This document shows, piece by piece, positions 62,505 to 64,000 of a stretch of DNA of 64,000 nucleotides. Each line of letters begins with the position of its first letter. The stretch's first letter is position 1. A program made the position numbers and the translations under genes. The DNA comes from Escherichia coli O127:H6 str. E2348/69 (GTDB lineage Bacteria; Pseudomonadota; Gammaproteobacteria; Enterobacterales; Enterobacteriaceae): assembly GCF_000026545.1 (NCBI RefSeq), contig NC_011601.1; one strand, written 5' to 3'. The notes under the pieces were generated by a model that was given only the letters and a program-made list of their open reading frames with translations, was not told where the DNA came from and did no database searches.

Positions 62505-62889
62505 TCAGACAGTGCGTTTCGCTTTTTGCTTGTAACGGTCGAAAATCACCGCTGCCAGCAGGATTAAGCCGCGAACTACGTACTGTGCGAAAGGAGAAAT
62601 ATTAAGCAGGTTCATGGCGTTTTCCACGGTGCCTAAAATTAAGATACCCGCCACCACATATGAGATTTTTCCGATGCCGCCTTTCAGAGAAACACCACCT
62701 AAAACGCAGGCGGAGATCACAATCAGCTCATAGCCAATCGACGTCATTGGCTGCCCACTGGTCATACGTGAAGCCAGAATAATTCCGGCTATCGCTGATA
62801 CCAGGCCAGAGAGAACAAAGATAATAATTTTGGTGCGAACAACCGGTACACCCGCCAGACGCGCAGCCTCTTCGTTCCCGCCAATCGCC
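62505..62889 (-). pseudogene. araH: araH, 3' portion only (C-terminal ~127 codons of the arabinose ABC transporter permease), truncated by IS insertion
   Basis: Frame is open from the stop at 62505 up to 62889 (...AIGGNEEAARLAGVPVVRTKIIIFVLSGLVSAIAGIILASRMTSGQP...KQKAKRTV) and is then replaced by an IS terminal repeat; no start codon or N-terminal half is present. Confidence 0.85.
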
Positions 62890-62908
62890 CTGTCTCTTGA
62901 TCAGATCT
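62890..62908. repeat. Terminal inverted repeat of an IS50-family element (matches the IS50 inside-end 19-mer)
   Basis: CTGTCTCTTGATCAGATCT begins exactly where the araH frame is interrupted; the transposase stop codon (TGA on the minus strand) lies inside it. Confidence 0.8.
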
Positions 62909-64000
62909 CCTGATCAAGAGACTTCATCACCAGGTAACCCTCAACCATATCCTGAAGTCTGAACCAGCCATCCCACATGACTACCCAACCGGGGCGACCG
63001 GTGCGTTTGCTGTCATGCCATCGCCCCAGTTTCGCCAGTTTCAGACAGGCCCATTTCAGTGTCGGCATCTGTGACGGAAGCGGTTTTCCTTCCAGCTTAA
63101 CCCACAGCAGTTTCCACTCTGTCGGCGTCAGTATTTTCTCACAGCTGTCATTTTGTGTTTCTTCACTGATACCGCCCTGCCGCAGGCCCAGCACCCGCAC
63201 CGCGATAAACGCCTTGATAACCACCATGCGCTCGAGGTTATCCCGGGTCTGCATTCGCAGCGATTCCACACATGTACCACCACTTTTCCACGCCTTGTGG
63301 TATTCCTCTATCAGCCAGCGTCGCTCGTAATGGCTGACGATACGTCGCGCATCGGCGGCACTCGCCACTTTTTCTGACGTCAGCAGATGCCAGCAGGCGC
63401 CGTCCTCTGCCTGCTCCCGGCAACAGACATACGTGAGCGGGAGCGCCTGGCCGCTGTTGTCGGGATTTTTTATGCTGACTTCGCTGTAACTGATGAACAT
63501 CCGGGCCTGGCGGGCTGCCCGCCCGCCTTTTTGCATCACATTCAGCGTGTGGCTTCCCGCGGTTGCCAGGACTTCCGGCAGTTCGAAGAGCTTGCCGGGT
63601 GCTTCTTCCAGCCGGCGATTCTGTGCTGCACGCACCACGAAGCGCTGCCCGTGGCTGACTTTATAATGCAGGTAATGCCAGATATCCGCTTCCCGGTCAC
63701 AGACAGTGATTACCCGTTTCTGTATCTCCCCCAGCCGTTCGGCCATGCGCTCCGAAGCCTGCTGCCAGCGGTAACTTTCTTTTTCTTCATAGGGACGTTC
63801 TTTTCGCTGGTGCTTAACACCGTAGGTGTCCGTGGCACGACTCCAGCGCTGCTGTTCGATAAGACCGACTGGCAGGGCGCTGTCGGGGGCGTACATCAGG
63901 ACAGAGTGAGCCAGCAGCCCGCGCGTCTTCGGGTTAGTGGTGGTATTCCCCAGGTCATCAGATGCCGTACTGTGACTGAAGTTAATGGTGGTGGTGTCTT
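62901..64000 (-). CDS. IS4-family DDE transposase (Tn5/IS50 Tnp homologue), C-terminal ~365 codons; N-terminus lies beyond the window
   Basis: Frame is open from the window edge (DTTTINFSHS...TRGLLAHSVLMYAPD...) to the stop at 62901; VITVCDREADIW and RWLIEEYHKAWKSG align with the D188 and Y-R-E-K catalytic motifs of Tn5 Tnp, and DSKRTGRPGW with its C-terminal region. Confidence 0.85.
   Translation of the reverse strand, partial: DTTTINFSHSTASDDLGNTTTNPKTRGLLAHSVLMYAPDSALPVGLIEQQRWSRATDTYGVKHQRKERPYEEKESYRWQQASERMAERLGEIQKRVITVCDREADIWHYLHYKVSHGQRFVVRAAQNRRLEEAPGKLFELPEVLATAGSHTLNVMQKGGRAARQARMFISYSEVSIKNPDNSGQALPLTYVCCREQAEDGACWHLLTSEKVASAADARRIVSHYERRWLIEEYHKAWKSGGTCVESLRMQTRDNLERMVVIKAFIAVRVLGLRQGGISEETQNDSCEKILTPTEWKLLWVKLEGKPLPSQMPTLKWACLKLAKLGRWHDSKRTGRPGWVVMWDGWFRLQDMVEGYLVMKSLDQEI

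Follow-up and report, generated by a model that had tools for sequence, protein, structure and literature searches.

The insertion sequence IS50 is most familiar from the arms of the composite transposon Tn5. For reference ends, IS50 was located in the Salmonella plasmid pMAK2 by tblastn and its termini were read directly (slice L009, 285 and 1818): the outside end (OE) is CTGACTCTTATACACAAGT and the inside end (IE) is CTGTCTCTTGATCAGATCT, and the two lie 1,534 bp apart. The second of these 19-mers is also contained in primers for the Tn5 nptII promoter (PMC9241598, PMC5458577). For ISEc13, the element considered here, a full-text literature search yielded only surveys of resistomes or mobilomes, in each of which the element is named once. 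In the full-text matches for E2348 together with araH, the araH mention examined concerned an unrelated AraH-like ORF. A further literature search for descriptions of insertion sequences or pseudogenes in E2348 found nothing usable.

On the transport side, null mutations in araFGH of K-12 abolish neither growth on arabinose nor, when more arabinose is supplied, the induction of araBAD. E2348/69, the host strain here, serves as the prototype for EPEC, and arabinose-inducible (pBAD) vectors are in wide use in it. The case of its araH gene is already in public annotation, as RefSeq marks araH as a two-piece pseudogene and names the transposase. We are nearly certain that a single insertion of ISEc13, probably by cut-and-paste, split araH and duplicated 9 bp of its target, and that AraFGH would consequently not work, with the strain relying on AraE.

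The interruption of araH

The window, the whole 64,000-nucleotide stretch of E2348/69 DNA (NC_011601.1) that was analyzed, ends inside the element. On the minus strand, 127 codons and a stop form an open frame at 62505 to 62888, which translation identifies as codons 202 to 328 of araH. This pseudogene half matches the NCBIfam equivalog for AraH, NF008441, which has 333 positions, from 207 to 332 (E = 2.6e-72, 243.7 bits), and RefSeq labels it "araH, incomplete, missing N-terminus." araH-derived sequence continues through 62889, and the last 9 bp of it (62881 to 62889, no strand assigned) form the left copy of a target-site duplication, CCAATCGCC, as evidenced by a repeat search and by reading of the junction. 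At 62890, the frame gives way to CTGTCTCTTGATCAGATCT, the 19-bp transposase-distal terminal repeat of ISEc13 (62890 to 62908, plus strand), which was compared directly with IS50 in pMAK2. The 19-mer occurs once in the window, and 0 of 100 shuffles matched it, even with 3 mismatches allowed.

The portion of ISEc13 inside the window runs from 62890 to 64000 (minus strand), and the full 1,550-bp element would end at the equivalent of window position 64439. Its transposase gene is represented by its 3' 1,100 nt at 62901 to 64000 on the minus strand, encoding residues 92 to 457 plus the stop (RefSeq WP_000244358.1); the stop codon lies at 62901 to 62903, and the frame leaves the window at 64000. 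The first-pass annotation had placed the change from araH to the IS end at 62890, which rereading of the sequence found exact to the base, and had described a minus-strand transposase ORF that points at this end and exits the window at 64000, which the 457-residue protein bears out.

Because the window alone displays only the 3' part of araH, the far side was examined by fetching 6 kb on each flank from two E2348/69 assemblies, in one of which the far junction sequence was read. Window coordinates equal those of the assembly slice L001 plus 56,299, and the overlap is identical. ISEc13 at araH spans L001 6591 to 8140, or 1,550 bp, with CTGTCTCTTGATCAGATCT at one end and the reverse complement of CTGTCTCTTATACACAAAT at the other, such that the second terminal repeat sought beyond 64000 is indeed found, 1,550 bp from the first. 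The right copy of the 9-bp duplication follows at L001 8141 to 8149, equivalent to window 64440 to 64448 and off the window; the direct repeat predicted for an IS50-type element is hence present as CCAATCGCC on both flanks. Directly past the IS, the RefSeq annotation continues with the first 203 codons of araH, followed by araG and araF, both intact, and by ftnB, which accounts for the remainder of araH and araG that was looked for past 64000. RefSeq labels this far araH fragment "missing C-terminus."

The two pieces of araH are complementary. The N-terminal half matches NF008441 at positions 13 to 209 with 342 bits, next to the 207 to 332 covered by the C-terminal half, and neither half reaches the cutoff of 378 set for the whole protein, which is to be expected of partial sequences. 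The araH-derived lengths of 385 nt and 611 nt, minus the 9-bp duplicate, give 987 nt, or 328 codons plus a stop; when the IS and one repeat copy are removed, translation gives an uninterrupted 328-codon frame with no base lacking. Moreover, the empty site, reconstructed over 153 bp, agrees at 100% identity with the intact araH of other strains, and this site is uninterrupted in 5,413 of 5,426 complete E. coli genomes.

These data bear on a question that the first-pass annotation had left unsettled, namely, whether the insertion was accompanied by an adjacent deletion that took away the promoter-proximal half of araH and perhaps araG and araF as well. What can be seen inside the window would fit such a deletion, and IS-associated loss does occur in this strain, where two lab variants have lost about 22.5 kb between two other ISEc13 copies. 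However, the 5' half of araH, araG, and araF stand directly past the IS in two annotated E2348/69 assemblies, the 9-bp duplication is intact, and the rebuilt gene measures exactly 987 nt, so that the far-junction sequence refutes the deletion and we give it next to no credence. The insertion is a simple one, with no adjacent deletion, because the duplication is intact and araH rejoins exactly to 328 codons. The earlier count of about 127 C-terminal araH codons holds, whereas the promoter-proximal half that had been reported missing is absent from the window only and is present 440 bp past the window end. Likewise, an insertion in araH had been correctly called, but "interrupting" describes it better than "truncating."

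The same junction decides whether the transposase gene might instead be part of something larger, such as a composite transposon, or of some other structure that is not an IS. This would be in keeping with the familiar role of IS50 in Tn5 and with a window that stops before the second terminus. Nevertheless, the second repeat lies 1,550 bp from the first, araH resumes at once with the matching 9-bp duplication, and the element consists of a single transposase ORF with no passenger gene. A composite or non-IS structure is refuted by the far-junction sequence and is, in our estimation, vanishingly improbable; the element in araH is a lone insertion sequence.

Kinship of ISEc13 with IS50

The name ISEc13 comes from RefSeq (PGAP), which calls the transposase "IS4-like element ISEc13 family transposase." All 19 positions of the transposase-distal end agree with the IS50 inside end, and the transposase-proximal end, CTGTCTCTTATACACAAAT (L001 8122 to 8140, equivalent to window 64421 to 64439, off the window), agrees with the outside end at 17 of 19. 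Both ends are of the 19-bp imperfect CTG(T/A)CTCTT... terminal-repeat type found in the IS50/Tn5-like group of the IS4 family. Two GATC (Dam) sites lie inside the distal repeat, at 62899 to 62902 and 62904 to 62907, and a third lies just within the element at 62912 to 62915. At position 4, the proximal end has T where the IS50 OE has A; T at this position is the base present in the engineered hyperactive Tn5 "mosaic end."

Both ISEc13 termini also overlap perfect hairpins, with a 13-bp stem at the distal end and an 11-bp stem at the proximal end. The distal hairpin, found by repeat search and RNA folding at 62892 to 62922 (no strand assigned), is a perfect 13-bp inverted repeat, GTCTCTTGATCAG / CTGATCAAGAGAC, with a 5-nt loop; it overlaps both the terminal repeat and the transposase stop codon and folds at -21.8 kcal/mol (z = -3.2). 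The proximal hairpin, at L001 8103 to 8128 (equivalent to window 64402 to 64427, off the window), folds at -25.5 kcal/mol (z = -5.5). The IS50 termini, folded likewise, revealed no such hairpins, and the end corresponding to the distal ISEc13 end gave z = +0.3.

The transposase, WP_000244358.1, has 457 codons, and its CDS reaches the equivalent of window 64274. Over its full length, it matches Tn5 transposase structures (1MUH, 1MUS, 4DM0, and others) with E = 6e-84, and its identity to Tn5 transposase is about 42% over 436 aligned positions. Catalytic residues D93, D193, and E323 align with Tn5 D97, D188, and E326, while Y316, R319, and K330 align with Tn5 Y319, R322, and K333, giving the Y-(2)-R-(3)-E-(6)-K signature. 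D93 falls just inside the window, and residues 1 to 91 are off it. Pfam domains occur in the order PF14706 (E = 2.8e-19), PF01609 (4.8e-07), and PF02281 (9.7e-05), which are the Tn5-type DNA-binding domain, DDE_Tnp_1, and the C-terminal Tn5 dimerization domain, respectively, and the NCBIfam model for IS4 family transposases, NF033590, is matched with 514 bits versus a cutoff of 160. By homology to Tn5, ISEc13 would be expected to move by cut-and-paste transposition.

On the evidence of the ends, the transposase, and the 9-bp duplication, the first-pass call of an IS50-family element was correct. The element is ISEc13, a named relative of IS50, and not IS50 itself.

ISEc13 among E. coli genomes and within E2348/69

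A megablast query comprising window positions 62300 to 64000 (1,701 bp across the otsB-araH-IS junction) was run against 5,426 complete E. coli genomes. The junction was matched at full length and 100% identity in three of them (NZ_CP059840.2, NZ_LT827011.1, and NZ_LT903847.1), all of which are stocks of EPEC O127:H6 strain E2348/69. The remaining genomes matched the araH/otsB part or the IS part, and never the junction. The RefSeq features along the matched stretch are "otsB," "araH," and "IS4-like element ISEc13 family transposase."

A repeated IS that was misplaced into araH during assembly could in principle mimic such a junction, and about 30 copies of a 1.55-kb repeat can confuse short-read assemblies. 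Nevertheless, three separately deposited complete assemblies match the 1,701-bp query at 100%, the far junction was read in one assembly while a second shows the same annotated layout, and misassembly would not be expected to produce a perfect 9-bp target duplication. We therefore reject an assembly artifact on the far-junction sequence and attach hardly any weight to it, and we treat the insertion in araH as genuine.

ISEc13 itself is common. The full 1,550-bp element occurs in 873 of the 5,426 genomes at a coverage of at least 80%, and copies that are 99.9 to 100% identical are present in more than a dozen unrelated E. coli. Per complete E. coli genome, the median number of ISEc13 places is 1 and the highest is 32, a count reached by E2348/69 (30 on chromosome CP059840.2 plus 2 on plasmid CP059841.1). 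The E2348/69 stocks differ in their chromosomal places (30, 29, and 27), which supplies the copy count that the first-pass annotation had called for as 27 to 30 per chromosome. Each E2348/69 assembly has at least one further copy that is 100% identical to the araH copy over 1,550 bp. Identical copies at many loci, together with the differing copy number of the stocks, would be indirect evidence of transposition.

Two other copies in E2348/69 have an arrangement of their own. In CP059840.2, the ISEc13 copy upstream of araE and the copy in ygfK (NZ_CP059840.2; slice L006 5488 to 7037 and slice L008 12778 to 14327 on the minus strand, respectively) form a pair of direct repeats with about 22.5 kb between them, and each is flanked by a target duplication of its own; that of the ygfK copy is the 9-bp CCACCATGC. 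In LT827011.1 and LT903847.1, which are assemblies of lab variants, the approximately 22.5 kb between these copies, from kduD to the 5' part of ygfK, is deleted. At the level of the assemblies, two complete 1,550-bp copies are then joined head to tail with a spacing of 0 bp (...TATAAGAGACAG|CTGTCTCTTGATCAG...), while the outer flanks are unchanged; in NZ_LT827011.1, the abutted pair lies at 3178986 to 3182085 (slice L005 28987 to 32086).

Two ordinary routes to such a pair were considered and rejected. A fresh insertion next to an existing copy would leave a 9-bp spacer, and 0 bp is seen. Homologous recombination between direct repeats would leave one ISEc13 copy, yet both complete copies remain, and because of this, an excision made by the transposase is suggested. 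The sequence of the abutted pair suggests precise cleavage at the facing IS ends followed by their end-to-end joining by the transposase. The broader proposal that ISEc13 is still active in E2348/69, and that its transposase excises inter-IS DNA precisely and rejoins the IS ends, strikes us as speculative and rather unlikely. To our knowledge, end-rejoining excision of inter-IS DNA has not been described for hairpin-type IS4-family transposases. As a separate observation, the NZ_LT827011.1 assembly ("variety 2" of E2348/69) has rpoS annotated as frameshifted at 3060687 to 3061680.

Arabinose uptake and comparison with described systems

The final gene of araFGH, araH, codes for the sole permease, and the break falls at residue ~204 of its 328, in the stretch TLAIG|GNEEAARLAG. 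Translation of the N-terminal fragment is predicted to continue through about 99 IS-encoded residues before it meets a stop, and the C-terminal fragment of 127 codons is promoterless and lacks its own start. Loss of AraFGH is expected because the only permease is split at this residue, and we consider it a sound inference that the function of the transporter is gone. In the sequence of events that we propose, ISEc13 would have inserted by cut-and-paste at about araH codon 204 in the E2348/69 lineage, and insertion would have duplicated 9 bp of the target, CCAATCGCC. This would have left 203 residues of the permease on the N-terminal side and, on the C-terminal side, 127 codons without a promoter. 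The products of the upstream operon genes araF and araG, which are intact, could still be made, although a transporter without a complete permease should not work. Uptake of arabinose would then be expected to rely on AraE, a proton symporter encoded by an intact gene.

The araE gene of E2348/69 is an intact 472-codon CDS (WP_000256426.1), and its product is the same as that of related strains. All three E2348/69 assemblies have a second ISEc13 whose distal end is 288 bp upstream of the start codon of araE, and the interval between that end and the start codon spans L005 28699 to 28986 in NZ_LT827011.1 and L006 5200 to 5487 in NZ_CP059840.2. Comparison with the uninterrupted relative FDAARGOS_144 places this copy 26 bp beyond the stop codon of kduD, inside the terminator hairpin of that gene, and it is flanked by a 10-bp direct repeat, GCCATGCGAC. 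The retained 288 bp contain, 83 to 99 bp upstream of the ATG, an exact match to TAGC-N7-TCCATA, the AraC half-site pattern of araI1. The expectation that AraE-dependent uptake would be unaffected thus stands as far as the CDS, the 288 bp upstream of it, and the half-site are concerned, and it has to be qualified by the ISEc13 at -288; judging from these features, araE regulation and expression are probably intact. Both arabinose-uptake loci of E2348/69 carry ISEc13, inside araH in one case and upstream of araE in the other.

By itself, this is an ordinary gene knockout with little importance beyond strain bookkeeping, and it leaves our understanding of insertion sequences and of arabinose transport unchanged. 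Nevertheless, a strain that lacks AraFGH and depends on AraE would be expected to respond differently at low arabinose, which is useful to those who work with it. The araH locus is also a clean natural case of simple insertion, with a 9-bp duplication, by a Tn5-like IS.

Like IS50/Tn5, ISEc13 encodes a single DDE transposase with the same three Tn5 domains and with the D/D/E and Y-R-E-K residues conserved. Its distal end is identical to the IS50 IE, including the two GATC sites, its proximal end matches the OE at 17 of 19 positions, both elements duplicate 9 bp of target, and their lengths are similar at 1,550 bp for ISEc13 and 1,534 bp for IS50. In contrast, the transposases are only about 42% identical, ISEc13 has strong terminal hairpins (13- and 11-bp stems) that IS50 is without, the proximal end has T rather than A at position 4, and no composite transposon is involved at araH. 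Relative to the ISEc13 of other RefSeq E. coli, the transposase is the same (WP_000244358.1) and the element is 99.9 to 100% identical; only the araH site is specific, occurring in 3 of 5,426 genomes.

Finally, E2348/69 resembles the K-12 araFGH null mutants in that the high-affinity ABC importer is lost, as we infer for E2348/69, while the low-affinity AraE symporter is kept. The two differ in origin, with an engineered deletion in K-12 and a natural IS disruption in a pathogen here, and, unlike the K-12 mutants, E2348/69 also has ISEc13 288 bp upstream of araE.
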